Below, one piece after another: positions 1,937 through 58,553 of a DNA stretch of 64,000 bases. The translations under genes and the position numbers were made by a program. The notes beneath the pieces were generated by a model. The model saw nothing but the letters and a program-made list of their open reading frames with translations. It was not told where the DNA came from and searched no databases. Source of the stretch: Minisyncoccota bacterium (GTDB lineage: Bacteria; Patescibacteriota; Minisyncoccia; Phycocordibacterales; Phycocordibacteraceae); contig JBAZXD010000001.1 in NCBI GenBank assembly GCA_041660025.1, positions 40,059 to 104,058 of the forward strand, given 5' to 3'. Positions within the stretch are counted from its first letter, which is position 1, and each line of letters starts with the position of its first letter.

Positions 1937-2101
1937 TTAGTACCTCCGTGAATTAATGGGTAAAAGACCAGCCACCAGCCAAAATATAGCATATGACTAC
2001 ACTAAAGTCAATATAAAGTACCGCGTTTGCAATATATTTATGAAAGATGTATATTTAAAACATACACATTTAAATTAAAGGTGGTTCCCGCCACTATTTT
2101 T

Positions 2102-2884
2102 ATGGTCAATTCTGAAAACAAAGAAGAATCCGCTCTTTACACTTCTCTTAAGGAATTGGGTTTAAGCGACCCGGAAGCCAATTTATATGCTGTTTCTCTT
2201 AAGCTTGGGCCAAGCTCAATTTCTGAACTGGCAAAAAATGTGAATGTCTCTCGTCCAAATGTTTATAAAATTATAGAGGGCCTTCAGATGTATGGACTCG
2301 CATCTTTTTATGGAAAAGAGAAATACGCTCGCAACTTCATGGTTGAATCCCCGACGATTGTTTTTGAGAAACTTCAAGCAAAGAAGGAATCGTTAAATAG
2401 GCTTGGACATCAGATTGTTACTGAATTGCCTGAATTGCTTGCACTTTATCAACAGGGCGGGAAAGACACGAAAATAAAAATTCTTAAAGGGCGAGAACAA
2501 TATGTAAGAGTGTTCCTTCAAACAGCTGATGAAACAGCAAATGGAGGAGTGATTGAATTTTTTGGGTCAGCGGAGGATTTTATTGGTCTTACTGGTTGGG
2601 ACACGGAGAAAATCTGGATTAAAAAGCGTATTAAGAAAAATATTTCAGTGAAATCACTCGTTCCGCCAGGATCTGTCGCGATGCTCAAAAAGAATCAAGA
2701 GGACGAATTAAGAGAGGTAAGGATTTATAGTGGAAACTTTTCTTTTAGTACCGCTTTCGAGCTCTTTGGAAACAAAATGATCGTTTGGCAGCCCGTGGCA
2801 CCGCTAGCTGTCCTCATTGAGGATCAATATATAGTTTCTATGTTTCGCAGTATCTTTTATACCTTGTGGGGAAAGTCAAAATGA
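2102..2884 (+). CDS. TrmB-like winged-helix transcriptional regulator with uncharacterised C-terminal domain
   Basis: N-terminus SLKELGLSDPEANLYAVSLKLGPSSISELAKNVNVSRPNVYKIIEGLQMYGLAS fits the TrmB-type HTH. The ORF track starts at a TTG at 2027; the ATG at 2102 (MVNSENKEE...) is more plausible. Low GC (AT-rich codons throughout). Confidence 0.5.
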   Translation: MVNSENKEESALYTSLKELGLSDPEANLYAVSLKLGPSSISELAKNVNVSRPNVYKIIEGLQMYGLASFYGKEKYARNFMVESPTIVFEKLQAKKESLNRLGHQIVTELPELLALYQQGGKDTKIKILKGREQYVRVFLQTADETANGGVIEFFGSAEDFIGLTGWDTEKIWIKKRIKKNISVKSLVPPGSVAMLKKNQEDELREVRIYSGNFSFSTAFELFGNKMIVWQPVAPLAVLIEDQYIVSMFRSIFYTLWGKSK

Positions 2885-2895
2885 TTATATGTTAC

Positions 2896-2950
2896 TTCAC
2901 CGATATGTGCGACGACCCGCGCAAATTTACCATCACCTCGCGGGCATAAC
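2896..2950. repeat. direct repeat copy 2 (55 bp), the displaced GC-rich copy of the NYN gene 3' end
   Basis: ttcaccgatatgtgcgacgacccgcgcaaatttaccatcacctcgcgggcataac. In frame it would encode the same FTDMCDDPRKFTITSRA* peptide as copy 1. Confidence 0.8.
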
Positions 2951-2986
2951 GCCGAGCATAGTGCGTTCGGTGCGGTACTATAGAGA

Positions 2987-4099
2987 GTGATGGACGAGCC
3001 GAAGAAATATATCCGCACATTCGCGGGAGATATGGAGACCCTGAAAAAGGGAGGCACGCCTGATCTCGCACCGTTGCGCACTGTTCCAGCTGTACCATCC
3101 GTACCGTCCGCACAGCCGCCTGTCGCGACGCTCCCCGCACAACCGCTCCCGACGCCGCCTCCGCCTGAACCACAGAAGATCGCGGAGCCGTTCCCGAGCG
3201 TCGCGCCGAAGGAGCCCGCGGCGGCGCCGCTCAAGACCTATTCGGGCGACTTTTTCGACCGGATGAAGGCGACGAAGGCTACGACCGCCACCGTGCTCGC
3301 CGCCGAACAGGATTCGGCGCCGATTATTTCGCAACCGCCCCCAGAAAAATTTTCACGCAGCAATATTCTCTACAGCATCGCGGGCGGCATACTGCTTATT
3401 GCCGGCATAGCCGGAGCGTATGTCGCGTACACGCGCTACCTCGCCGTATCCTCTCCGATATTGCCGGTCCTCACGGTCTCGGCGCCGATATTCGTCGACG
3501 AACGCGAGCAGATTTCTGGCACGGGTACTACGCTCTTTCAGGCAATCGGACAGTTAACGACGCGTCCGCTTGCGGCCGGCGCCGTCCGACTCCTCTCTCT
3601 CGACGCTACGGCCACTACCAGCGTATTCTCAGCGCTCCAGGTGCCGGCACCCAGCGTCCTACTCCGCAACGTGGTCACCGCCGGGAGTATGGCGGGCGTC
3701 GTGTCCACGGGAGGTGGAACACAAAGCCCGTTCTTCATCCTTTCGGTCGCTTCCTTCGGGGATACCTTCGCCGGTATGTTGCAGTGGGAGCCGCTTATAT
3801 TGCGCGACCTCGCCAGACTTTTCCCGCCATATCCGGCTCCGGCGATAGCGACCACGACGAGTGCGACCACGACGCTGAAGAGCACGGGGAAAACGGCTTC
3901 CACGACGCCGCCCGCGCCCGCCGCTCGCTTCGTCGATGCGATCGTCGCTAATCACGATGTCCGCGTCTATCGCGACACGCTCGGCCGGGACATCCTGCTC
4001 TACGGCTATTGGAATCAGACGACGCTCGTTATCGCGCGCGACGTCGCCGCGTTCACCGAGATCATAGGAAGACTTGCAACTTCCCGTGCACAACTCTAG
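2987..4099 (+). CDS. hypothetical single-pass membrane protein with proline-rich N-terminal region
   Basis: 370-aa ORF. P/A-rich low-complexity stretch (PAVPSVPSAQPPVATLPAQPLPTPPPPEPQ), one TM helix (ILYSIAGGILLIAGIAGAYVAYTRYL), then a ~220-aa extracytoplasmic domain. No family recognised. Confidence 0.5.
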   Translation: MMDEPKKYIRTFAGDMETLKKGGTPDLAPLRTVPAVPSVPSAQPPVATLPAQPLPTPPPPEPQKIAEPFPSVAPKEPAAAPLKTYSGDFFDRMKATKATTATVLAAEQDSAPIISQPPPEKFSRSNILYSIAGGILLIAGIAGAYVAYTRYLAVSSPILPVLTVSAPIFVDEREQISGTGTTLFQAIGQLTTRPLAAGAVRLLSLDATATTSVFSALQVPAPSVLLRNVVTAGSMAGVVSTGGGTQSPFFILSVASFGDTFAGMLQWEPLILRDLARLFPPYPAPAIATTTSATTTLKSTGKTASTTPPAPAARFVDAIVANHDVRVYRDTLGRDILLYGYWNQTTLVIARDVAAFTEIIGRLATSRAQL

Positions 4100-4119
4100 G
4101 TGTCTGCTATTATCCCTGC

Positions 4120-4467
4120 ATGAAGACCGAACACTTCAGGAAGAAACTCTCCGCGGAGAAGGCGCGACTGGAATCAGAAATGGGAACGGTCGGTCGCCAG
4201 AATCCTGCGGTGCCCGGTGACTGGGAATCGGTCCCGTCGGAGACGGGCGTCGAATCCGACCTCGCCGACCAGGCCGACATCGTGATGAGCCGCGAGGGCA
4301 ACAGTGCTATCCTCGCCGATCTTGAAGCACGGTACGACACGGTCATCTCAGCGCTCGCGCGGCTCGAGAACGGCACGTACGGGAAGTGCGAAGTCTGCGG
4401 CAAGAAGATAGAAGAAGAGCGTCTCGAGGCCAACCCCACCGCGACGACCTGCGTCGAACATTTGTAA
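4120..4467 (+). CDS. DksA/TraR-family zinc-finger protein
   Basis: [20 protein letters not shown]...[30 protein letters not shown]: coiled-coil plus C-terminal CxxC...C zinc finger of the DksA/TraR type. ATG at 4120 lies inside the longer track ORF 4009..4467. Confidence 0.65.
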
Positions 4468-7299: not shown

Positions 7300-7358
7300 T
7301 TCTTGCGTACTTCCATATCAGCTATACCCCGAGTATAGCCGAGGGGGGCGCTTCGTCA

Positions 7359-9341
7359 ATGAAGCCTCTAAACGCCTGTGGAGAACGGTTTTTAGGGTAT
7401 ATTTGGAAAGTGAAATACCTCGACGGATTAAATGAGGCGCAAAAACGGGCTGTCCTTGCAAAGGACGGCCCGATCTCGGTCCTCGCGGGCGCCGGAAGCG
7501 GGAAAACGCGGGTGCTCACCACGCGGATATACCATCTGATACGCGAAGGCGTCGCGGCGGAGCAGATCCTCGCCGTTACCTTCACCAACAAGGCCGCCCG
7601 TGAGATGCGCGAACGGGTGCGGGGACAGCTCGGCGCGGACCCTTCGATGGACTCAGGACAGGCGGGGCCGCTCCCGTTCATCGCCACCTTCCACGGTCTT
7701 GGCCGCGAGCTCCTCGAGAGCTACGGGAAGGCGATTGGCATCTCGCGCTACTTCAGCGTCTACGACCGCGACGATTCTGAAAAGGCGATCGGCGCGGCGC
7801 TTAAGGCGCTCGATGTCGGCGCGAAGGAGCTTTCGCCGCGCGCGGTCCTCGGCCGCATCTCGCGCGAGAAGGGTGCCGGGATGCGCGCGAATGAATTTTA
7901 TGAGAAGCACGGCCGCGGGAGCTTCGGCGCGCGCGTCGTCGCGGAGGCGTGGCTTCGCTACGAGAAAACACTTGCGGCAGAGAAATCGCTCGACTTCGAC
8001 GACCTCATCGCTCTGCCCGTGCGGCTCCTCGAGGAGCACGCCGACATCCGCGCACTCGCGCAGGACCGCTGGCGCTACATCCACATCGACGAATATCAGG
8101 ACACCAATGCGCTCCAGGGACGGCTCGCGAATATGCTCGCCTCGAAACATCGGAACCTCTTCGTCGTCGGCGACATCGACCAGACTATCTACACGTGGCG
8201 CGGCGCAACGATTGAGAACCTGCTTGAATTCGACAAAACGTATCCGGATGCGCAAACGATTATTCTCGAACAGAACTATCGTTCGACGAAAAATCTCGTC
8301 GACGCCGCGAACGCGGTTATCGAGAAGAACAAGAATCGTAAGGAGAAGTATTCGACGACGAAAAAGGCAACCGGCGAGCCGATCCTTGTGCATATGGCGC
8401 GAAGCGCGGACGACGAGGCGCGCTGGATCGCGCTCCGGATACGGCAATTAATGAGCGCGGGCCAGAAACCGGAGGGGATCGCTATACTCTTCCGCACCAA
8501 CTTTCAATCCCGCGCGCTCGAGGAGGGGCTCCTGCGCGCGGGCGTGCCGTACAAGCTGCTCGGCACGCGCTTCTTCGCGCGCAAGGAGGTGAAGGATGCG
8601 CTCGCCTGGATGCGTCTTGCGATGGACTCCTCGCGCGAGGTCGACAAGCTGCGCGCGGCGGCTGCGCCGCCGCGCGGGCTCGGTAAGGTGACGCTCGCGA
8701 AGCTCGCGGCGGGCCAGCGTTCATTGCTTCGCGCCGGCGACCTTACGAAGGTCGAACAATTCGAACAGATCGTCGCAGAGCTCGCGGGCGCCTCGCTCGT
8801 CCTCTCGCCCTCCGCATTCGTAAGACTCGTCATCGAGAAGAGTGGTATACGCCGCGCGCTCTACGACGAGGGGAGCGCGGAGGACCGCGAGCGCTTCGAG
8901 AACGTCGAAGAGCTCGCCTCGGTCGCCGCACGGCACGATGCGATGCCGGGCAGAGAGGGAATCGCCGCATTTCTCGCCGAATCCGCCTTGGCGAGCGATC
9001 AGGACGAGATGGATCAGGGCGAAAAGAAAGGCGTCACGCTTATGACGGTTCATTCGGCGAAGGGACTCGAGTTCGATACGGTATTCGTGAGCGGTATGGA
9101 AGAAGGACTCTTCCCGCATCAGGGGATGGGGAATGAGGGAGATCGTGATGAAGAGGAGGAGCGACGGCTCTTCTACGTCGCAATGACGCGCGCGAAAGAG
9201 CGCCTCATCCTCACGCTCGCGCGCGTTCGCAAGATTTACGGCAGTGACTTCGCGTCGGAGCCCTCGTCATTTCTCGCGGATATCGACGGAGCGCTGATGC
9301 ACTATGACGAGACCGAAGGAGAAGAGGTTATCGAGGCCTAA
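7359..9341 (+). CDS. UvrD/PcrA/Rep-family ATP-dependent DNA helicase
   Basis: Walker A AGAGSGKTRVLT, helicase motifs TFHGLG, DEYQDTN, VGDIDQTIY, C-terminal VTLMTVHSAKGLEFDTVFV. GAGGGGGG RBS 10 nt before the ATG at 7359. Confidence 0.85.
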   Translation: MKPLNACGERFLGYIWKVKYLDGLNEAQKRAVLAKDGPISVLAGAGSGKTRVLTTRIYHLIREGVAAEQILAVTFTNKAAREMRERVRGQLGADPSMDSGQAGPLPFIATFHGLGRELLESYGKAIGISRYFSVYDRDDSEKAIGAALKALDVGAKELSPRAVLGRISREKGAGMRANEFYEKHGRGSFGARVVAEAWLRYEKTLAAEKSLDFDDLIALPVRLLEEHADIRALAQDRWRYIHIDEYQDTNALQGRLANMLASKHRNLFVVGDIDQTIYTWRGATIENLLEFDKTYPDAQTIILEQNYRSTKNLVDAANAVIEKNKNRKEKYSTTKKATGEPILVHMARSADDEARWIALRIRQLMSAGQKPEGIAILFRTNFQSRALEEGLLRAGVPYKLLGTRFFARKEVKDALAWMRLAMDSSREVDKLRAAAAPPRGLGKVTLAKLAAGQRSLLRAGDLTKVEQFEQIVAELAGASLVLSPSAFVRLVIEKSGIRRALYDEGSAEDRERFENVEELASVAARHDAMPGREGIAAFLAESALASDQDEMDQGEKKGVTLMTVHSAKGLEFDTVFVSGMEEGLFPHQGMGNEGDRDEEEERRLFYVAMTRAKERLILTLARVRKIYGSDFASEPSSFLADIDGALMHYDETEGEEVIEA

Positions 9342-51344: not shown

Positions 51345-52856
51345 ATGCAGTCTCTCCTCAATCGTCTCGCATTTCCGGGGTGGCGCTATGCGCTCGCGGC
51401 GCTCATCGTGCTTGCGGCGGGCGGGTATTTCTTTTTCGGCCGGAGCGACGACTCGGGCGCGACATTTGTCGTTATTTCGGGCGATTTTCGACAACAAGTG
51501 AACGTCTCGGGCGCCGTCATCGCGGCCCGGGATGTCGATCTTGGCTTTGCGGCGAACGGGCGCATCTCCGGCACGTACGCGAGCGTCGGTCAACGCGTTT
51601 TCGCGGGAGCGGTCATTGCGGAGACAGAGAATGGCGACCTTGTCGCGGCGCTTACGCAGAAACGCTCCGCGCTTACTGAAGCCGAGGCGGATCTCTCAGC
51701 ACTCCGCGCCGGCACGCGCGGAGAAGAACTCGCCATAGCCTCCGCCTCCGTTGTGAATGCGCAGGCCGCGCTCGTTGACGCCGTACGAGGCGCCTACACT
51801 TCTTCTGATGATGCTATTCACAATAAAACAGACACCTTTTTTACCAATCCGCGCATCGACCCGAAGCTTTCGTTCAATGTCTCGAACGCAAGCCTAAAGA
51901 CTACGGTCGAACGCGACCGCACCGCGCTTGAGCCGGTGCTCGCGCAATGGGCGCTTCTCGTCGGAGCGCTCTCGAGTGCGAATGCCGCTTCTGCGGCGAA
52001 ACAATCTCAGACCTTTCTTGCACAGGTCACGACGTTTCTCGCCGACGCGAATGCCGCAATCAACCAAGGCGTTCCGGATTCGACCGTGACAGCCGCCACG
52101 CTTACCTCGTATGGGACGACGCTCGCGACGGCGCGGAGCAACGTGAACGCCGCCGCGACGACGCTTACGACCGATACCTCGGCGCTCAACTCGGCCGAGC
52201 GGAATCTCGCGCTCAAGCAGGCCGGCTCGACGAGCGAAGACATCGCGGCGCAAGAAGCGGCGGTCGCCGCCGCCGCGGCGGACGTGGAACAGGCGCGCGC
52301 CGCGCTTGCTAAGACGCGCGTCGTTGCGCCCTTCACCGGCATTATTACCCGTATGGATGCGAAGGTTGGTGAGATCGTTTCCCCCTCGACCTCTCTTATT
52401 TCTATGCAGAGCGACGGCATCTTTCAGATCGAGACCTACGTTCCCGAAGTATCCATCGCGCGCGTTGTCGTCGGGAACAGAGCGACGACGACGCTTGACG
52501 CGTACGGCTCCGCGATCGCATTCCCCGCGACGGTCGTCGCGGTCGACCCGGCGGAGACGATGAAGGACGGCGTGCCGGCGTATAAGACGACGCTCGCGTT
52601 CCTCACGGCGGACCAGCGTATCCGGAGCGGTATGACGGTGAACGTCGTCATCGAGACCGGCGTGCTCCGCGACGCCATCGTCATCCCCGCGGGCGCGGTC
52701 GGTACGAAGGACGGCGCGTCGTACGTCTCTGTTTCCACCGGCGATACCATAGTGCCCCGTCCGGTCACCACCGGCCCCGCTCCCGCGCTGGGGCAAGCTC
52801 AGATCCTCTCGGGCCTCTCATCCGGCGACGTTATTCTTCTCTCTCCTGCGCCCTAG
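51345..52856 (+). CDS. HlyD/MacA-like membrane-fusion (periplasmic adaptor) protein
   Basis: N-terminal TM anchor, long Ala-rich coiled-coil, C-terminal beta-barrel/lipoyl-like region (VAPFTGIITRMDAKVGEIV). First gene of an MFP-permease-ATPase trio. Confidence 0.65.
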   Translation: MQSLLNRLAFPGWRYALAALIVLAAGGYFFFGRSDDSGATFVVISGDFRQQVNVSGAVIAARDVDLGFAANGRISGTYASVGQRVFAGAVIAETENGDLVAALTQKRSALTEAEADLSALRAGTRGEELAIASASVVNAQAALVDAVRGAYTSSDDAIHNKTDTFFTNPRIDPKLSFNVSNASLKTTVERDRTALEPVLAQWALLVGALSSANAASAAKQSQTFLAQVTTFLADANAAINQGVPDSTVTAATLTSYGTTLATARSNVNAAATTLTTDTSALNSAERNLALKQAGSTSEDIAAQEAAVAAAAADVEQARAALAKTRVVAPFTGIITRMDAKVGEIVSPSTSLISMQSDGIFQIETYVPEVSIARVVVGNRATTTLDAYGSAIAFPATVVAVDPAETMKDGVPAYKTTLAFLTADQRIRSGMTVNVVIETGVLRDAIVIPAGAVGTKDGASYVSVSTGDTIVPRPVTTGPAPALGQAQILSGLSSGDVILLSPAP

Positions 52857-52858
52857 GC

Positions 52859-54115
52859 ATGCTCTCCCTTCTCAATATCCGCGTCGGCTTCTACCTCGCC
52901 CTGCGACAGCTCCGCAGAGCGAGTCTCTGGACCACGGGGCTTATCGTGTTCGTGATGCTTCTCACGTTCCTCAATCTCGTCGTCGTCACCGGCATCCTCG
53001 TCGGGCTCATTGACGGCATCAACAATAGTTATCGTACCCAATACACGGGCGACGTTATTCTCTCGGCGCTCTCGACGAAGGAGTACATCGAGGATACGCC
53101 GAGCATCGTCGCGTTCCTGAAGACGCTGCCGCAGGTCGCGCTCCTGACCGAGCGGTACCAGACGGGCGGCACCATAGAAGCGAACTATCTCACACGCACG
53201 AGCGAGACAGAGAAGCCGAATGCCACCAGCGCGCAGATTATCGGTATCGACCCCGTCGCCGAGGACGCGTTCACCGGACTCTCTCAGCACATTATCGAGG
53301 GGCAGTATCTCGCCGACGGGGACTACGACCAGATCCTCGTCGGCAATTACCTGCTCGCGCAATATGCGTTCGGCGAGCTGCCGGGCCTCACGCCTCTGAA
53401 GAACGTCTCGCCGGGAACGAAAGTGCGCCTCACCGTGAACGGCGCCACGCGCGAGGTCATCGTGAAAGGATTTGTGAAGACCAAGATTGACGCGCTCGCG
53501 ATGAGCATCTTTATGCCCGCGTCCGAATTGCGGACGATCATGGGCCGGAACGACCAGAACGTCGCGCAGGTGGCGATACGCCTTACTCCCGGGAGCGATC
53601 CGGTCGCGTTCAAGGAACTCCTCCTCGCGAGCGGCATCGGGGTAAAGGCGAAGGTGCAGACCTTCGAAGATTCCATCCCGAACGGCGTCGCCGATATCAA
53701 GACGACCTTTGCGATGCTCGGGAACGGCTTCAGCAGTATCGGGCTCGTCGTCGCGGCCATCACCATCTTCATCGTCATCTTCATCAATGCGATCACGCGG
53801 CGGAAATTCATCGGCATCCTCAAAGGTATCGGCATCTCGGGCGAGGCTATCGAGATCTCCTACATCTTCCAGTCGCTCTTCTACGCCGTCATCGGCTCGG
53901 CGATAGGCGTGCTCGTCCTCTACGGAGTCCTGGTGCCCGGGCTCGCCGCGCACCCGATCGATTTCCCGTTCAGCGACGGCATCCTCGTCGCGCCACCGGT
54001 CGATACTTCGGTGCGTATTCTCCTGCTCGTCTTCACGACCGTCGTCGCGGGCTACCTGCCCTCGCGGATGATCGTGCGCCGGAACACGCTCGACTCCATC
54101 CTCGGTCGCAATTAA
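52859..54115 (+). CDS. ABC transporter permease, FtsX/MacB-like
   Basis: N-terminal TM, large extracytoplasmic domain, three C-terminal TM helices (FtsX fold). Confidence 0.8.
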   Translation: MLSLLNIRVGFYLALRQLRRASLWTTGLIVFVMLLTFLNLVVVTGILVGLIDGINNSYRTQYTGDVILSALSTKEYIEDTPSIVAFLKTLPQVALLTERYQTGGTIEANYLTRTSETEKPNATSAQIIGIDPVAEDAFTGLSQHIIEGQYLADGDYDQILVGNYLLAQYAFGELPGLTPLKNVSPGTKVRLTVNGATREVIVKGFVKTKIDALAMSIFMPASELRTIMGRNDQNVAQVAIRLTPGSDPVAFKELLLASGIGVKAKVQTFEDSIPNGVADIKTTFAMLGNGFSSIGLVVAAITIFIVIFINAITRRKFIGILKGIGISGEAIEISYIFQSLFYAVIGSAIGVLVLYGVLVPGLAAHPIDFPFSDGILVAPPVDTSVRILLLVFTTVVAGYLPSRMIVRRNTLDSILGRN

Positions 54116-54121
54116 CTATCT

Positions 54122-54802
54122 ATGATCGAAGTCACAAATCTCGTAAAAAGTTTTAAGGACGGCCCAATCGAGACGCGAGTCCTGAAGGGTATCGATTTCT
54201 CCGCGAAGCGGGGCGAGTTCATCGCCATTATGGGCCGCTCGGGAGCGGGAAAGAGCACCCTCCTCTACCAGATGTCGCTTCTCGACGAACCGACCTCAGG
54301 CGAGATCCGCATCAATGGCAAGGAGGCGCACCGGATGAGCGAACACGAGAAGATGCTCTTCCGCCTCACCGAGTTCGGCTACGTGTTCCAGGACTATGCG
54401 CTTCTGCCGGAGCTCACGGCGCTCGAGAATGTCGCCCTGCCGCTCCTTATGCAGGGCGCCACGCGCGCCGCCGCGGAGGCGAAGGCCTCCTCCGCGCTCG
54501 AGCGCGTCGGCCTCGGGAGCCGGCTCAATAATCTCCCGAGCCAGCTTTCGGGCGGCGAACAGCAGAGAGTCTCCGTCTCCCGCGCCATCGCGCACACACC
54601 GGACATCCTTTTCGCCGACGAACCGACGGCGAACCTCGACCGCGAATCTTCTTCGACCGTGATGGATATCTTCAAGGAGCTCCACAAAGCGGGGCAGACC
54701 ATCATTATGGTGACGCACGAGGAGGAATACGCGCGCATCACCGACCGTATCATCACTCTCGACGACGGAAAAATAATTTCTAACGAACGCGCATCCGCCT
54801 GA
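54122..54802 (+). CDS. ABC transporter ATP-binding protein (MacB/LolD-type)
   Basis: Walker A GRSGAGKSTL, signature LSGGEQQRVSVSRA, Walker B ILFADEPTANLD. Confidence 0.9.
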   Translation: MIEVTNLVKSFKDGPIETRVLKGIDFSAKRGEFIAIMGRSGAGKSTLLYQMSLLDEPTSGEIRINGKEAHRMSEHEKMLFRLTEFGYVFQDYALLPELTALENVALPLLMQGATRAAAEAKASSALERVGLGSRLNNLPSQLSGGEQQRVSVSRAIAHTPDILFADEPTANLDRESSSTVMDIFKELHKAGQTIIMVTHEEEYARITDRIITLDDGKIISNERASA

Positions 54803-54915: not shown

Positions 54916-55143
54916 ATGAAGTTACACGCTATCGCGTTCGTTCTTGTCGTCATCGGCGGTCTCAATTGGGGACTCGTGGCGATTGGGTCCTATATGGGCA
55001 GCAACTGGAACGTCGTGAACCTCCTCCTCGGCTCGTGGCCGGCGGTCGAGAATCTCGTCTATCTGGTTGTCGGTCTCTCGGCGCTCACACTCGTCTTCTC
55101 GCACAAGAAGGACTGCCGCGCCTGCAACCCTTCGGGGATGTAA
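54916..55143 (+). CDS. DUF378-family small membrane protein
   Basis: GGLNWGLVAIG...VENLVYLVVGLSALTLVF. 75 aa. ATG at 54916 inside the longer track ORF. Confidence 0.55.
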   Translation: MKLHAIAFVLVVIGGLNWGLVAIGSYMGSNWNVVNLLLGSWPAVENLVYLVVGLSALTLVFSHKKDCRACNPSGM

Positions 55144-55144
55144 A

Positions 55145-55228
55145 CTCTGAAGACAGAGTTTTCTACCTACACTCGCTCGGAAATAATGAAGTAAAGATCT
55201 CATTATTTCCTCGCTCGTTTGGTAGTAA
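55145..55228 (+). repeat. structured intergenic element, copy B
   Basis: actctg-aaga-cagagt hairpin (covaries with copy A), ctacactcgctcgg, variable hairpin aaataatga...tcattattt, cctcgctcgtttggtagtaa. Its own strong terminator follows at 55250..55285. Confidence 0.5.
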
Positions 55229-55285: not shown

Positions 55286-55350
55286 TCCCTTCGCTCGCCT
55301 CGGTCGAACGCATGGGGACATGCACTCGACGTTCGGCTCGCTTGGTAGTA
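55284..55350 (+). repeat. structured intergenic element, copy C (lacks the 5' hairpin)
   Basis: ttcgctcgcctcgg, variable hairpin tcgaacg...cgttcg, gctcgcttggtagtag. Confidence 0.5.
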
Positions 55351-55422
55351 GCATCAAAATGTTGAAAGGAATTGCTTTCGACAAAACAAACGGATGCTCT
55401 GTCAAAAAAAGGAGAGGTTCGA

Positions 55423-55779
55423 ATGAAAAAAGGAACGATAGAAAGAGAAGAGGGCGGCGCAGTATGGCCGCCACATGCTGTTGTAGCACGATATTCCGAT
55501 CGCGACGAAAGACTGGATGAAGTCGAAGCGAGCGACTATCGTGCAACGGCGCATCGCGAAGACGCTCCTGCGCCGGTAAAATGTCTCGGGTTCGCCTGTC
55601 CTGCGTCGTCAGACATCTGCGATATCTGTCATCTGAACCCGAGTTACATACCTCCGAAAAAGAAACTCACTCGTCCGCAACGGCCTGAAGATGGTCTCGC
55701 GAGTATCGGAGAAGCAAAGCACTATGTGCGCCTTGCTGTCCCGATGTCCCGCGGTCGTCGCGGCGTCGTAAGTCTCTAA
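55423..55779 (+). CDS. hypothetical Cys-cluster protein (118 aa)
   Basis: AAGGAGAG RBS before the ATG at 55423. CLGFACPASSDICDIC (C-x4-C-x6-C-x2-C). GC is visibly lower than the host genes. No family recognised. Confidence 0.45.
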   Translation: MKKGTIEREEGGAVWPPHAVVARYSDRDERLDEVEASDYRATAHREDAPAPVKCLGFACPASSDICDICHLNPSYIPPKKKLTRPQRPEDGLASIGEAKHYVRLAVPMSRGRRGVVSL

Positions 55780-55804
55780 TAAAACAAACTCCCCCCATTC
55801 GACA

Positions 55805-55846
55805 AGAGCGTCCGAGATGTTTCCGGACGCTCTTTTGTTTTCTTTC
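55805..55846 (+). terminator. intrinsic terminator
   Basis: agagcgtccg-(9 nt)-cggacgctct followed by tttgttttctttc. Confidence 0.6.
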
Positions 55847-55848
55847 TG

Positions 55849-55873
55849 GCGGAGGGGGAGGGACCGCGAATAC
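55849..55873. repeat. partial duplicate of the tRNA-Ser 3' end (att-like remnant)
   Basis: ggcggagggggagggaccgcgaa versus 56031..56054 ggtgcggagggggagggattcgaa. A second fragment agggagggattcgg lies at 55901..55916. Confidence 0.5.
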
Positions 55874-56034
55874 GCTTTTCGAAACGTACCATTTCAGTAC
55901 AGGGAGGGATTCGGTCACGCATAAAATCCTGTTGGATTTTTGCGCGACCCCGCCTCGCGCCGTCGCGCTCCGGCTTTCGAATCCCGTCCTCCCGATACAA
56001 AAAGCGCCCATAAGGGGCGCCTTTGTATCGGGTG

Positions 56035-56123
56035 CGGAGGGGGAGGGATTCGAACCCTCGATACGGTTTTACCCGTATAGCGAGTTAGCAACCCGCCGCA
56101 CTAGGCCTCTATGCGACCCCTCC
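56035..56123 (-). tRNA. tRNA-Ser (anticodon GCU), type II with long variable arm
   Basis: The reverse complement folds by hand: acceptor GGAGGGG/CCCCTCC, D-arm GCA-TAGAGGCCTAG-TGC, anticodon stem GCGGG/CTCGC with loop TTGCTAA (GCT), 20-nt variable arm ATACGG-GTAAAA-CCGTAT, T-arm GAGGG-TTCGAAT-CCCTC, discriminator G. CCA is not encoded. Confidence 0.8.
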
Positions 56124-56145
56124 GTATGAGGCAACACTACCAAAT

Positions 56146-56754
56146 TTAGTGCGCGAGAGCGAGCGAAATGATGCGTTTTGCGCCCGCGCCCGCGAGGGTA
56201 TCGATGGCGGATTGGAGCGTAGCGCCGGTGGTGATGACGTCATCGATGACTATATAGGTGTGTGATGGATCGATAGAGTGCGCGGCGCCGAAGGCGCCGC
56301 GCATATTCTTCTCGCGTTCGCGGCGCTGGAGCGAGACCTGCGAGGTTGTCTCGCGCGTGCGGATGAGCAGTGTCGTATCGACCGGGATGCCGAGCTCATT
56401 TGCGGCTCGCTGCGCGATCTCCTCGACCTGATTGAAGCCGCGCTCCTTGCGCCGAGCGGCACCGAGCGGCACCGGTATAATGAGGGGTTTGCGATATCCG
56501 TCATCGGCGTCGCGGAGGTAGTCGGCGAGCGCAGTGGCGAGGAGCTCGAAGGCACGACTGCTTCCGTGATACTTCGCTTCGTGGATAGCCGCGCGCACGC
56601 GCTCGTTGGCGAAAGAGAGGATTGCGACCGTCTCCGGACGCGTCTCCGGCACCACTCGCGGGACTACGAGCGCGAGGAATGCGTCAACCGAGACCTTGCG
56701 GACTGCGATCTCATCCACGCGCGGGGGGAACAAGAAATCCAAAAAGCGCATCAT
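56146..56754 (-). CDS. comF: ComF-family phosphoribosyltransferase-domain competence protein
   Basis: PRTase motif YIVIDDVITTGATL. 202 aa, no N-terminal zinc finger. Divergent from pilM. Confidence 0.7.
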   Translation of the reverse strand: MMRFLDFLFPPRVDEIAVRKVSVDAFLALVVPRVVPETRPETVAILSFANERVRAAIHEAKYHGSSRAFELLATALADYLRDADDGYRKPLIIPVPLGAARRKERGFNQVEEIAQRAANELGIPVDTTLLIRTRETTSQVSLQRREREKNMRGAFGAAHSIDPSHTYIVIDDVITTGATLQSAIDTLAGAGAKRIISLALAH

Positions 56755-56768
56755 GGTATTATTGTTGC

Positions 56769-57872
56769 ATGTCGTTCCTCTCCGATCTCTTTGTGAAAAA
56801 GGAAAAGAGCGTTCTGGGTGTCGATATCGGCTCCTCCTCTTTGAAGGTGGTCCAATTGCGCAAGGAGCGCGGGCAGGCAGTGCTTGAGACGTACGGCGAA
56901 CTCTCGCTCGGTCCCTATGGCGGGGGAGAGATCGGCCAGGCGACGAACCTCTCCGCCGAACAGATCGCCGAAACCTTGAAGGACCTCCTGCGCGAAGCGA
57001 AGGTGACCACGAAGAATTGCGGCGTCTCGATACCCTACGCGCGCTCGCTCCTCACGCTCGTTCAGCTACCGTACCGTGTCGATGCGAAGGAACAGAAGAC
57101 CGTCATCGAGCTTGAGGCGCGCAAATATATTCCGGTACCCGTTGCCGAAGTACAGCTCGATTGGTTCATCGTCCCGCAGATGAGTCCCGCACAATCGGTC
57201 GCGGGCGTCGCCGGCTCGCAGCCTCCCGCCCAAGGGGGGACTGTCGACGTCCTGCTCGTCGCCGTCCACAATGACGAACTCACCCTGCTTCAGAAGATTG
57301 TTGCCACGGCGAATCTCGCGGCCAGCTTCTACGAGATCGAGATATTCAGTACCATCCGGGCGGCGGTTGAGGATCCGGTGAAGCCGGTCATGGTGCTTGA
57401 TATTGGCGCCGCATCGACGAAAGTATATGTCGTCGAACACGGCGTGGTGGCGCTCTCGCACGCGATAAGCGCGGGGAGCCAGGACATCACACGCGCTATC
57501 GCGATCTCCGGCAATATGCCCATCGCCCAAGCCGAAGCGCTGAAGAAGAGGGAGGGACTCGGAGAGAGCGGTGCGCTCGGGAGCCCCGAACTCGTGTTCT
57601 CGCGCATCTTCTCCGAGGTGCGTCGTGTCTTGATGCAGTACGAGACGGCGCACAAGAAATCGGTCACTTCTATCATATTCACCGGTGGTGGCGGGATCAC
57701 GAAAGAGCTCGGTGTTTATGCGAAAAAAGTTTTCTCGATCGACGTGCACATCGCGAACCCCTTCGCGAAGACCGAGGCGCCGGCCTTCATGCGCCCGGTC
57801 CTCGAGGAGATCGGTCCCGAGTTCGCCGTGGCGGTCGGTCTCGCGCTCCGCAAGCTCGAAGAGATAGGATGA
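56769..57872 (+). CDS. pilM: type IV pilus assembly protein PilM (actin-like ATPase fold)
   Basis: VLGVDIGSSSLKVVQL...VLDIGAASTKVYVVEHG...IIFTGGGG. ATG at 56769 inside the longer track ORF. Confidence 0.8.
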   Translation: MSFLSDLFVKKEKSVLGVDIGSSSLKVVQLRKERGQAVLETYGELSLGPYGGGEIGQATNLSAEQIAETLKDLLREAKVTTKNCGVSIPYARSLLTLVQLPYRVDAKEQKTVIELEARKYIPVPVAEVQLDWFIVPQMSPAQSVAGVAGSQPPAQGGTVDVLLVAVHNDELTLLQKIVATANLAASFYEIEIFSTIRAAVEDPVKPVMVLDIGAASTKVYVVEHGVVALSHAISAGSQDITRAIAISGNMPIAQAEALKKREGLGESGALGSPELVFSRIFSEVRRVLMQYETAHKKSVTSIIFTGGGGITKELGVYAKKVFSIDVHIANPFAKTEAPAFMRPVLEEIGPEFAVAVGLALRKLEEIG

Positions 57873-57929
57873 CGTTTTGCACAGCGTTCCGGCGTGACGC
57901 TTGCGCTGATAGCGTATACTGAAAGAGAA

Positions 57930-58553
57930 ATGGCTCTTCCTCCCACGATACCAACCTCGTTCGTTCCGCACGCGACCTCCGCGCCCGCGCGTCGGTTCCG
58001 CACCGACCTTGTCGGCGCATTCGGTTTTTTCACATACGCGGTTCTCGGCATCACTTTCGTGCTTGCTCTCGGCGTATTCTTCTACGGCCGCATTCTCGCG
58101 TCGAACAAGGCCGCGAAGGATGCAGAGCTCGCAGCCGCCCAGGCGAACATCGACCCGGCGACCGTGGAGAACTTCGTCCGCCTGCGCGACCGCCTCACCT
58201 CGAGCAATTCGCTCCTCGCGAAGCACGCCTCCTTCTCCAGCTTCTTCTCCTCGCTCGAGAAACTCCTCCCCGCGAGCGTCCGCTTCACGTCGCTCCACCT
58301 CTCGCAGAGCGATATCGGTATGCCGAAGATGGAGGGCGTCGGCACCGCGAAGAGCTTCAACGCCCTTGCGTCGGCGTCGAACGCCTTTGCGACCGACGGA
58401 CGGATCAAGGACGCTATCTTCTCGAACATAAGCGTCAACCGGGATGGCTCGGTCTCGTTCGTTCTCTCGGCGACGCTTGATCCGAAGATCATCGCTTTTT
58501 CACCGGCCGCCGCACTGACCGATGACGCGGGAACGCCCGCCCCACTGCCATGA
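57930..58553 (+). CDS. pilN: PilN-like type IV pilus assembly protein
   Basis: Single TM (FGFFTYAVLGITFVLALGVFFY) then coiled-coil then periplasmic domain. Position after pilM. Start may be 57894. Confidence 0.55.
   Translation: MALPPTIPTSFVPHATSAPARRFRTDLVGAFGFFTYAVLGITFVLALGVFFYGRILASNKAAKDAELAAAQANIDPATVENFVRLRDRLTSSNSLLAKHASFSSFFSSLEKLLPASVRFTSLHLSQSDIGMPKMEGVGTAKSFNALASASNAFATDGRIKDAIFSNISVNRDGSVSFVLSATLDPKIIAFSPAAALTDDAGTPAPLP

Follow-up and report, generated by a model that had tools for sequence, protein, structure and literature searches.

A tRNA-Ser locus with two small, probably inserted structured elements of an apparently undescribed tRNA-end family in Paceibacterota (CPR)

Because the tRNA-Ser(GCU) gene in the window (by which we mean the whole 64,000-nucleotide stretch of DNA analyzed) is followed by two short fragments that repeat its own 3' end, we asked how these fragments arose and what the DNA around them represents. 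A preliminary description had seen in the locus a decayed integration hotspot, the scar of elements that had come and gone, with a small foreign cargo gene retained. The features needed for the argument are listed below; X denotes a direct and X' an inverted copy of the tRNA end, v1 and v2 are the two elements of the window, and L-numbered labels refer to the related loci and contigs that were compared with it.

54916-55143: the DUF378 gene
55423-55779, plus strand: open reading frame for a 118-aa protein with a C-x4-C-x6-C-x2-C cluster, preceded by a Shine-Dalgarno sequence (the Cys-cluster gene)
55804-55843, plus strand: terminator of the Cys-cluster gene, conserved in L213-L215; resident flank and outer boundary of the inserted DNA
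55849-55863, minus strand: outermost copy of the tRNA end, UCCCUCCCCCUCCGC, an exact 15-mer
55864-55901, minus strand: 3' remnant of v2, UGUACUGAAAUGGUACGUUUCGAAAAGCGUAUUCGCGG, with the 5' half missing, assigned by its likeness to the v2 element of L017
55902-55913, minus strand: inner copy of the tRNA end, CGAAUCCCUCCC, an exact 12-mer that is also the 3' strand of helix P1 of v1
55907-55985, minus strand: core of v1, a 79-nt three-way junction, from covariance model R1 and the minimum free energy (MFE) fold
55986-55993, minus strand: vestigial X', GGGAGGAC, a partial inverted copy of the 3' strand of the tRNA acceptor and T-stem
55991-56033, minus strand: terminator-like hairpin, ACCCGAUACAAAGGCGCCCC...GGGCGCUUUUUGUAUCGGG, directly after the tRNA, the innermost inserted DNA
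56035-56123, minus strand (lower end at 56034/35): intact tRNA-Ser(GCU), called by ARAGORN and matched by the Rfam tRNA model at 51.3 bits

The segment that is duplicated downstream comprises the last 19 nt of the tRNA-Ser gene, from C56 of the T-loop through the discriminator and 1 further nt (56034-56052). The outer copy is a 15-mer, GCGGAGGGGGAGGGA, in which 55849-55863 match 56034-56048 with no mismatch; it spans the last base of the T-loop, the 3' strands of the T-stem and acceptor, the discriminator and one additional base, and there are only two occurrences of it in the 64 kb even when 2 mismatches are tolerated. The inner copy is a 12-mer, GGGAGGGATTCG (55902-55913, identical to 56041-56052), that covers the T-loop and the 3' strand of the T-stem plus 2 nt. 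It pairs with CGAATCCCGTCCTCCC at 55978-55993, an inverted copy of that end which was absent from the preliminary description. By our own arithmetic an exact 15-mer is expected by chance approximately 1e-4 times per window, and therefore two exact copies within 190 nt of their source are far above chance.

Evidence for how the copies arose comes from L213, a close relative in which the DUF378 protein is identical, the flanks are 87-93% identical, and nothing separates the terminator of the neighboring gene from the tRNA 3' end. In the alignment, window positions 55804-55863 correspond to L213 positions 1933-1991, and 56033-58370 to 1976-4340, with the outermost copy (55849-55863) occupying the position of the live tRNA 3' end in L213. 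Because the site is empty in this relative, positions 55864-56033 of the window constitute a 170-nt insertion and 55849-55863 mark the former tRNA end, though the state of L213 could equally be explained by a precise deletion between two copies of X. Examination of the window ORFs revealed no gene within the insert. Other pairs of filled and empty sites are L009 or L005 (filled) against L033, and L120 against L092.

The locus is a genuine integration hotspot. Across approximately 55 related loci the tRNA and the DUF378 gene are separated by as little as 66 nt or as much as several kb; a search of related tRNA-Ser loci for larger intact elements found large serine recombinase islands at the same site in L044, L049, L057 and L088, a 1.8-kb island in L034 has a 24-nt tRNA repeat at its bounds, and an island in L036 is bounded by a 14-nt repeat. 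The preliminary description was thus correct about the hotspot, about the two duplicates of the tRNA end and about their nested origin by insertion, which the uninterrupted site of L213 bears out; the matches are exact and in register with T-loop C56 rather than a chance likeness of poly-G/A runs. What did not survive is the notion of a decayed scar, since the insert consists of one intact and one truncated copy of conserved structured elements.

The Cys-cluster gene, in turn, is not foreign cargo. The 118-aa ORF, its cysteine cluster and the strong terminator beyond the fragments (a hairpin at 55804-55834 with a 9-nt loop, followed by a T-run) are all present as had been reported, but the gene lies outside the outermost repeat and no copy of the tRNA end lies beyond it. 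Its product is one of a small family in which four cysteines are invariant, and this family fills the slot in the order DUF378, Cys, tRNA-Ser, ComF in relatives that are only 67-73% identical in DNA sequence (syntenic homologs in L081-L087 and, weakly, in L024). Because of this synteny and of its conserved promoter and terminator, to which a conserved 5' UTR may be added, we regard the gene as resident. The lower GC content that had been ascribed to it holds for third codon positions (GC3 0.471, rank 3 of 63) but is only mild overall (GC 0.549, where genes average 0.585 with sd 0.045; rank 10 of 63), within one standard deviation. Conservation is not complete, however: the same promoter and terminator enclose another ORF in the closest relatives, L213-L215. 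The gene is therefore an old resident of a variable slot, with no part in the elements. Likewise, of the tandem structured repeats B and C that had been drawn into the same scar, B is indeed a conserved structured element, found downstream of the DUF378 gene, and C is a partial local copy of B at the promoter of the Cys-cluster gene, but neither belongs to the tRNA-end elements. The Cys protein matched nothing in Pfam or PHROGs, a word-based homolog search returned only the protein itself, and exact-protein look-ups with the Cys and ComF proteins of the window gave no match; the AlphaFold model of the Cys protein (pLDDT 57.7) was too poor for a fold search.

Within the insert, the hairpin that directly follows the tRNA is also present in L009 and L024 and is missing from the empty site of L213; because it lies inside the inserted DNA, the element supplies its own terminator. 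Next comes the v1 core, whose helices are P1 (GGGAUUCG/CGAAUCC), P2 (GCC/GGC, a GGAG/CGAG internal loop and a hairpin) and P3 (GGUCGCG.../...UGUGACC, with a conserved G.U pair); the vestigial X' lengthens P1 by only about 3 bp. The MFE fold of this copy has a z-score of -6.7. Model R1, which was built from copies behind other tRNAs, matches the core at 97.4 bits (E = 6e-24), the sole good match in the window. The inner copy of the tRNA end is cut off after 12 nt by a deletion that fused v1 to the remnant of v2, and aligned with the complete v2 of L017 this remnant shows 90.6% identity to its 3' end over 53 nt. The v1 element is shared by the window, L009, L023 and L081, and v2 by L017, L006 and L038, with v2 also found behind tRNA-Arg (L147, L197). 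The window has an intact v1 and a v2 tail, and L006 has the opposite arrangement. We considered two familiar structures for the core. A hidden tRNA, tmRNA or intron-split tRNA was rejected, as ARAGORN and Rfam detect only the upstream tRNA and the core is a three-way junction with no anticodon arm and no cloverleaf of D, anticodon and T arms; a k-turn at the P2 internal loop was not adopted, as the bulge is 1 nt rather than 3.

The same core is widespread. An 18-mer from it, GGGATTCGAAAGCCGGAG, occurs in at least 120 metagenome contigs, and among the matches listed 86 of 126 occurrences have a tRNA on their own strand no more than 400 nt away and mostly follow it at a distance of 40-90 nt (mode 56-58). 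Among these listed matches the core follows approximately 19 kinds of tRNA – Ser (five anticodons), Tyr, Arg, Ala, Glu, Gln, Asn, Val, Cys, Leu, Pro and Lys – and one tmRNA, and it is always followed by a copy of the cognate tRNA end from T-loop C56 onward. Near-identical 79-nt cores stand behind Val, Ser, Arg, Glu, Tyr and Gln tRNAs. Some contigs carry two or three copies (e.g., L171, L153 and L196), tandem arrays are found in L102, L114, L127, L141 and L143, and L160 and L153 come from Paceibacterota. Units measure 130-250 nt and contain no remnant of a recombinase; in the cargo versions small genes take up 0.6-1.7 kb, no recombinase among them.

Base changes across the copies support the fold. 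Approximately 100 full-length copies show compensatory changes. RNAalifold counts 14 of 29 pairs as compensatory. Over 93 distinct sequences, in an alignment fitted to the model and hence inflated in its pairing, 93.3% of cells are paired as against 73.3% in shuffles, and 27 of the 29 pairs have changes on both sides. The covariation score is 0.388, compared with 0.112 for shuffled alignments (reached by 0 of 500 shuffles) and about 0.05 for slid controls. G.U pairs outnumber A.C appositions by 152 to 41, from which it follows that the tRNA-sense strand is the one that folds. Two further modules occupy the spacer between tRNA and core and are missing from most copies: X', counted where 7 nt or more are exactly inverted, in 23 of 69 spacers (5% in controls), and H1, a small hairpin with a conserved AACUGCU loop, in 18 of 69 spacers on 12 different stems. 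A kissing interaction between the H1 loop and the P3 loop (CAGCAG) was considered by eye and set aside, as many H1-bearing copies lack the partner.

None of our searches returned a named counterpart. In Rfam 15 the window, run in both gathering and E-value modes, matches only the tRNA, and six clean copies gave no match to the element at E <= 0.1. Phage and plasmid collections likewise gave no match to the element, nor did viral contigs to the v2 motif; a single IMG/VR match to the 18-mer (L208) is due to chance, as it lies inside an ORF and lacks P2 and P3. A literature search that included the raw motif found no description of the element. The group I introns of Patescibacteria tRNAs lie in the anticodon loop and are unrelated (PMC13011429). 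We conclude that the elements form a widespread, apparently undescribed family of non-coding structured units at tRNA ends.

The explanation that we favor, and hold to be somewhat probable, is that 55864-56033 represents two successive insertions of small, non-coding structured elements at the 3' end of tRNA-Ser, and that such elements are specialists of tRNA ends in Paceibacterota (CPR). Read in the direction of the tRNA, a complete unit comprises a terminator hairpin, often X', often H1, the three-way-junction core, and X. X' is an inverted copy of the 3' strand of the cognate tRNA's acceptor. X directly repeats the tRNA end, starting at T-loop C56 and running to the 3' terminus, a duplication of 19-25 nt whose outer edge is imprecise; the first helix of the core pairs GGGAUUCG with T-loop and T-stem bases, CGAAUCCC. 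A newcomer would land beside the live tRNA, leave it intact and terminated, and shift older copies outward, which would place the intact v1 inside and v2 outside as in the window. The 5' half of the outer v2 would then have been lost by deletion, and the outermost X would be the original end of the tRNA.

As to how such units might move, they would be non-autonomous, served by an enzyme encoded elsewhere that recognizes the universal T-arm, and the conserved core may act as a cis-acting handle that is read single-stranded, whether in a transcript or in ssDNA. The analysis found no partner tied to the elements, be it a recombinase, a transposase or something else. We reject large serine recombinases as helpers because they co-occur with the elements on only about 5 of 120 contigs, and a screen of the window for this type detected no similar sequence. 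A classical T-loop crossover demands a matching tRNA end for each element, which sits badly with near-identical cores behind seven kinds of tRNA; a long target-site duplication, for now only a candidate, would fit better. The target-specific inverted copy X' is accounted for by neither.

Of the alternatives, the one that survives best, though we think it doubtful, is that the unit is primarily an RNA gene: a putative tRNA-trailer non-coding RNA, transcribed by read-through and cut by RNase P and RNase Z, since the stack of X'/X on P1 mimics an acceptor/T-arm minihelix bearing the cognate acceptor sequence. It might mimic a tRNA, whether as a decoy or by sponging up an enzyme or toxin that binds acceptor ends, or it might be a processing or stability element, with copies behind other tRNAs arising by duplication or gene conversion, and it is compatible with mobility. 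The conserved junction nucleotides, the variable but covarying hairpins and the near-invariant G.U pair all speak for it, and such a pair, together with conserved junction bases, would sooner be expected in a functional RNA than in a recombination site. Folding is confined to the tRNA-sense strand, the H1 loop is kept on covarying stems, and X' follows the displaced X (e.g., GT/AC in L009). Furthermore, the element region is approximately 90% identical between the window and L009, whereas the ComF protein is only about 70% identical. Against this reading, a strong intrinsic terminator usually separates the tRNA from the core, no promoter-like site was seen in the units, no Rfam family matches, and a full X' and H1 are each lacking in most copies, that of the window included; truncated copies, tandem arrays and cargo versions resemble mobile DNA instead.

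An unlikely, though not far-fetched, possibility is that the core is the guide-RNA scaffold of an RNA-guided mobile system that homes to tRNAs, or that the units encode mimics of the acceptor stem, each fitted to its own tRNA, with a protective or regulatory role at tRNA 3' ends. Guide-RNA logic is known from the omega-RNA of IS200/IS605, the bridge RNA of IS110 and the delocalized crRNA of type V-K CAST, which homes to tRNA genes. Here, too, a conserved structured scaffold would carry some 20 nt matching the target beside it: the flanks would be derived from the target, X (3' of the core) matching and X' (5' of the core) being complementary to the T-loop-to-3'-end segment of the cognate tRNA, and a protein effector would be encoded elsewhere in the tiny CPR genomes or on their mobile islands. 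In contrast to those systems, no gene for TnpB, IscB, an IS110 recombinase or Cas12k lies in or beside the units, the Rfam families for those RNAs are unmatched, and the units come with a direct repeat of the target.

Slightly less credible still is that we see plain att-site scars, that is, attL/attR arms and partial tRNAs left when integrase-bearing islands were deleted, with functionless sequence between them. It is true that serine recombinase islands use this very tRNA, that recombinase-less islands with 24-nt and 14-nt bounding repeats occur there, and that many contigs end right after the tRNA; in tycheposon islands, too, newcomers displace older elements and leave partial tRNAs behind (bioRxiv 10.1101/2020.12.28.424599). 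Yet the intervening DNA here is a complete, conserved 79-nt core with compensatory changes among its copies, the small units have no remnant of a recombinase, and random deletions are not expected to converge on one architecture behind 19 kinds of tRNA. Among the loci compared, no integrase-bearing element with a v1 or v2 core in its attP-proximal arm was seen. Finally, chance likeness between G/A-rich low-complexity runs and the G-rich reverse complement of the tRNA end, suggested by the purine-rich strings and by 3 of 100 shuffles in which the 15-mer was matched two or more times with no more than 2 mismatches, is refuted, as both matches are exact, close to the tRNA and registered to C56, the cognate tRNA's own sequence recurs at dozens of unrelated loci, and in L213 the tRNA end itself occupies the homologous position.

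The favored reading, that of inserted tRNA-end elements, bears on a group of bacteria, the CPR or Patescibacteria, with tiny genomes and few recognizable transposons, in which the exchange of DNA is poorly understood. The 79-nt fold is an easy marker of insertions behind many tRNAs, sometimes with one or two small genes, and it offers a handle on cassette-like gene shuffling at tRNA ends and on the enzyme that would read the T-arm. Should the units prove to be functional RNAs, they would form a new and abundant class that copies the acceptor end of the neighboring tRNA. We note also a practical matter: the partial tRNA copies and the contig breaks that result from the units confuse tRNA annotation and the assembly of metagenome-assembled genomes.

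Among known systems, the closest in position are the islands that target tRNA genes, including tycheposons and cis-mobilizable elements (CIMEs). A CIME is defined by its excision as a circle or its mobilization through the recombinase of a helper. In the elements as in these islands, the inserted DNA follows the tRNA 3' end and is closed off distally by a direct repeat of that end, the newest unit of a tandem stack lies beside the tRNA, and partial tRNAs are left as remnants. Integrase-less units with att-like repeats on either side are described for tycheposons (bioRxiv 10.1101/2020.12.28.424599) and, in two reviews, for CIMEs (PMC5704250, PMC6323972). Like integrative elements in general, the units are bounded by a tRNA and a direct repeat and are present in some genomes and absent from others, but they encode no integrase or recombinase, and no integrase has been identified for them. 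They differ from islands as well in being only 130-250 nt long and usually geneless, in their conserved, covarying three-way-junction core, in the frequent inverted copy of the target, and in the use of one core behind some 19 kinds of tRNA.

In size the elements resemble MITEs, which are likewise short, geneless and present in multiple copies per genome, with a flanking direct duplication and terminal inverted repeats – here GGGATTCGAA...TTCGAATCCC, extended by X'/X. No parent autonomous transposon was found among the loci compared, and unlike those of MITEs the duplication is 19-25 nt long and is always the same functional segment of a tRNA, and the inverted repeats are partly derived from the target.

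The final comparison is with integron cassettes and their attC sites, and with the folded attP of the CTX phage, where the cis-acting site is, like the core here, an imperfect inverted repeat of which one specific strand folds. The elements differ in that their ends, GGGATTCGAA...CGAATCCC, lack the R''/R' boxes (RYYYAAC/GTTRRRY), in that no tie to IntI or XerCD emerged from the loci compared, and in that the center of the site is conserved in sequence rather than variable; their attachment point is the T-loop and 3' end of a tRNA rather than attI or dif, and their arrays start at the tRNA gene. Both, however, consist of small units, empty or with one or two genes, that form tandem arrays at one attachment point. 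In both, moreover, a strand-specific fold may re-create a double-stranded copy of the target, which in our elements would be the stem of the core rebuilding a replica of the tRNA segment from the T-loop to the 3' end.

We find that the occupants of the site behind the tRNA-Ser(GCU) gene are widespread, structured, gene-less tRNA-end elements of Paceibacterota, which are apparently undescribed. The preliminary description had read the locus as a hotspot with nested insertions, decayed to a scar that retained a foreign cargo gene; the hotspot and the nesting stand, and the decayed scar and the foreign cargo do not. The two partial tRNA-end copies that it reported are exact repeats, and no further copy of the tRNA-Ser 3' end was found across the 64 kb. 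The features are:

54916-55143: DUF378 gene, backbone on the opposite side of the tRNA from ComF; ABC ATPase and FtsX genes lie beyond
55423-55779: 118-aa ORF with a C-x4-C-x6-C-x2-C cluster (the Cys gene), preceded by a Shine-Dalgarno sequence
55804-55834: terminator hairpin of the Cys gene
55849-55863: outer tRNA-end copy, exact 15-mer (repeat search): last T-loop base, T-stem 3' strand, acceptor 3' strand, discriminator and one further base
55902-55913: inner tRNA-end copy, exact 12-mer (repeat search): T-loop from C56, T-stem 3' strand and two further nt
55907-55985: v1 core, the 79-nt three-way junction of element type v1, matched by its covariance model R1 (97.4 bits, E = 6e-24); sole copy in the window
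55978-55993: inverted tRNA-end copy, pairing with the 12-mer and overlooked previously
55991-56033: 43-nt hairpin directly after the tRNA, part of the insert (common to loci L009 and L024, absent in L213)
56034/35-56123, minus strand: tRNA-Ser(GCU), the single tRNA of the window (ARAGORN and Rfam)

Insertion at the tRNA-Ser end is demonstrable by sequence comparison with L213, a contig of another sample whose DUF378 protein is identical to that of the window. Identity is 93% over DUF378 and repeat B (a hairpin element) and 87% over tRNA-ComF-PilM, and only 4-5 nt separate the neighbouring gene's terminator in L213 from the tRNA 3' end. L213 1933-1991 aligns to window 55804-55863, and L213 from 1976 on aligns to the window from 56033 on; the window therefore has 170 nt of additional DNA, at 55864-56033. 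The outer 15-mer lies exactly at the tRNA-end position of this empty site.

The clade has three or more widely differing sequence versions of the tRNA-Ser(GCU) gene itself (5' ends GGAGGGG.., GGATGGG.. and GGAGACG..), which also differ in the D and variable arms (window 56035-56123; L017; L213 1977-2064). Since the window and L213 versions differ between flanks that are 87% identical, the whole gene seems to have been exchanged between lineages.

Comparison of the 230 nt downstream of the tRNA across all related loci revealed two recurring units. Type v1 reads ...GGGATTCGAAAGCCGGAG-hairpin-CGAGGCGGGGTCGCG-hairpin-TGTGACCGAATCCC and then the tRNA end (window, L009, L023, L081); type v2 reads GGGATTCGAARACCTTGCGAG...CGCAAGGTGTACTGAAAnnGTAnGTTTCGAAAAGCGTAATCGCGGT and then the tRNA end (L017, L006, L038). 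The window insert holds a complete v1 adjoining the tRNA and, outside it, only the last 38 nt of v2 (90.6% identity to L017 over 53 nt); in L006 the arrangement is mirrored. It follows that the inner 12-mer represents a truncated v1 end and the outer 15-mer a v2 end, and the inserted DNA consists of recurring units, not rubble.

A scan with the adjacent ComF protein gave about 60 Kaiserbacteria/Paceibacterota loci, in which the order PilM-ComF-tRNA-Ser(GCU) is nearly universal. The locus is variable: related loci have anything between 66 nt and several kb from the tRNA to DUF378, seven of them (L002, L003, L011, L031, L034, L054, L056) have the tRNA in reverse orientation to ComF, and many contigs stop at the tRNA or within about 100 nt past it (L008, L012, L013, L021, L022, L027, L030, L032, L214, L215), which usually points to strain-level heterogeneity or repeats there. 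Inverted copies of the acceptor 3' strand could have been the substrate for the seven inversions. Larger elements do occupy the site in several relatives, both large serine recombinase islands with KAP NTPase or Rep/Ltp cargo (L044, L049, L057, L088) and islands without a recombinase, bounded by 24-nt and 14-nt tRNA repeats (L034, L036).

The large serine recombinase genes of Ser-tRNA islands run antisense over the tRNA 3' end (L088 8567-10171; L159 271-486; L109 133-1680), so that the tRNA/att region encodes their C-termini. The L109 gene begins directly after the tRNA-end copy of a v1 element. A second indel less than 5 kb from the tRNA is the presence or absence of the HlyD-like/FtsX/ABC-ATPase operon (window 51380-54780), which is missing from L213, where a His_Phos_1 gene adjoins DUF378.

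The Cys gene and its terminator are real, and the gene is resident. An exhaustive HMMER search with its protein gave 12 relatives with four invariant Cys and the common motifs DEPxDxVEASD, EPTxCLGFACP..C..C.LNP and AP..RGRR. All five relatives of at least 32% identity whose context was looked up lie in the slot DUF378 -> Cys -> tRNA-Ser -> ComF, in genomes with only 67-73% DNA identity to the window, and in L086 even the order FtsX-ABC-DUF378-Cys-tRNA is complete. The promoter (TTGACG...TAnnAT), 5' UTR and terminator are conserved, and the gene lies outside the outermost tRNA repeat; its GC, previously called visibly lower, is within 1 sd of the window genes, and only its GC3 is low. On these grounds it is a resident gene. 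Its sole close database twin is annotated Candidatus Paceibacterota. Residence is qualified by the variability of the slot, described below, and by the spread of the homologues: among 60 species representatives a weak one occurs in L024 alone, and the three most distant lie elsewhere, with no tRNA nearby. Pfam and PHROGs gave no match to the protein, and its AlphaFold model was unusable.

In the closest relatives (L213-L215) an unrelated 110-aa ORF, sharing with the Cys family only a C-terminal 'llAP..(R/K)G.Ra' motif, stands between the same promoter and terminator. This shared frame of promoter, 5' UTR and terminator (window 55325-55422 and 55423-55843; L213 1478-1975; L214; L215) means that the slot itself turns over, and it looks like a swappable small-protein slot. 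In several relatives (L081-L084) the DUF378-Cys pair is preceded not by the ABC transporter but by heavy-metal genes (HMA/DsbD_2, a cupredoxin-like protein, SHOCT, a P-type ATPase), a neighbourhood that hints at a metal-related role for the four-Cys protein. Repeat B, just 3' of DUF378 (window 55160-55228, plus strand; L081 5815-5885; L086 4725-4795), has a conserved outer part, CTnCC...GGTAG, and an inner stem with compensatory substitutions among these three, and could form a 3' UTR or small-RNA structure; a partial duplicate of it specific to the window, repeat C (about 55286-55350), overlaps the Cys-gene promoter. By far the strongest compositional outlier of the window is a TrmB-like HTH regulator gene (2027-2884, plus strand; GC 0.38 against a window mean of 0.585; adjoining ORF 1499-1936, GC 0.48), which is a better candidate than the Cys gene for recently acquired DNA.

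The v1 family is large and is not restricted to tRNA-Ser. Its 18-mer GGGATTCGAAAGCCGGAG has matches in at least 120 metagenome contigs, and among the matches listed a same-strand tRNA lies no more than 400 nt from 86 of 126 occurrences, in most cases 40-90 nt before the motif (mode 56-58); those with no tRNA nearby are mostly at contig ends. The tRNAs before these listed matches are Ser (GGA, GCU, UGA, CGA, 'ACU'), Tyr, Arg (two), Ala, Glu, Gln (two), Asn, Val, Cys, Leu, Pro and Lys, with one tmRNA. All complete copies among them end in GTGAC followed by the upstream tRNA's own sequence from C56 to the 3' end, usually continuing 0-9 nt past that end; longer duplications are tandem arrays. Some 79-nt cores that are nearly identical to one another stand behind tRNAs as different as Val, Ser, Arg, Glu, Tyr and Gln. 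No recombinase was found among the small genes that a number of units carry (0.6-1.7 kb; hydrolase-like, PspC-like, NUDIX, CPCC). The hosts of two long element-bearing contigs are Paceibacterota.

An alignment of 22 sequences gave a three-way junction with compensatory changes in 14 of 29 pairs (RNAalifold). Helix P1, GGGAUUCG/CGAAUCC, has as its 3' strand the T-loop/T-stem portion of the displaced tRNA end. P2 pairs GCC with GGC and contains a GGAG/CGAG internal loop, P3 (GGUCGCG.../...UGUGACC) includes a G.U pair, and both carry a variable hairpin. R1 also matched seven sites in Kaiserbacteria and related loci and, among the matches listed, 101 in metagenome loci. In 93 distinct sequences from the listed metagenome matches, 93.3% of cells were paired, against 73.3% in shuffles; fitting the alignment to R1 inflates the pairing, but slid controls and an independent MAFFT alignment agree with the result. 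Both sides had changed in 27 of the 29 pairs, and the covariation score was 0.388 against 0.112, reached by none of 500 shuffles (slid controls, about 0.05). G.U pairs outnumber A.C pairs 152 to 41, which identifies the tRNA-sense strand as the one that folds. The 186-nt trailer of the window folds to exactly this shape (z = -6.7). The single-strand fold is under selection, on the sense strand.

Two optional modules may precede the core. One is an exact inverted copy of the cognate acceptor 3' strand: of 69 spacers, 23 have it at 7 nt or longer (controls, 5%) and 15 at 9 nt or longer (controls, 0.2%). The other is a hairpin whose conserved apex, C-AACUGCU-UG, sits on 12 different stems; 18 of the 69 spacers have it (chance expectation 0.08). 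In the window copy the first module survives only as a vestige and the second is absent. Behind a tRNA-Arg, L147 has a complete v2 and a complete v1 followed by three exact 70-nt tandem repeats (7308-7513), and every repeat joins the P3 half of a v1 core to part of a tRNA-Arg end and to a 30-nt spacer. In L127 (minus strand, around 842) a v2-like module (..CGAAAGGT GTACAGAATCTGTAAG ATTCG..) is apparently nested within a v1 core, in its P3 arm, suggesting recombination between the two families or their insertion into one another.

No Rfam family matches the element, phage and plasmid collections gave no match, and a literature search that included the raw motif found no description; the single viral-contig match to the 18-mer is a chance match, and identity as a tRNA, tmRNA or group I intron was ruled out.

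We favor the reading of the units as mobile; the main rival to it is that a unit is primarily an RNA that functions by mimicking a tRNA. They insert adjoining a live tRNA, with the segment from C56 to the 3' end duplicated, they supply their own terminators, they stack, and they decay by internal deletion. In L120 compared with L092 a new unit brings its own terminator and the old one remains with the displaced tRNA end, a pattern that fits an order with the newest unit nearest the tRNA. We infer, with moderate confidence, that the units lack autonomy and depend for their movement on a putative enzyme, acting in trans, that reads the universal T-arm. The matching tRNA end, sometimes with its inverted copy, could be gained at each new tRNA through a long target-site duplication or, alternatively, through priming on the T-arm from the GGGATTCG/CGAATCCC ends. 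For this enzyme the cis handle would be the core, whose fold may act as RNA or as ssDNA, and the stem formed by P1 and the inverted acceptor copy would rebuild a duplex copy of the target, an arrangement analogous in logic to folded attC or CTX attP sites.
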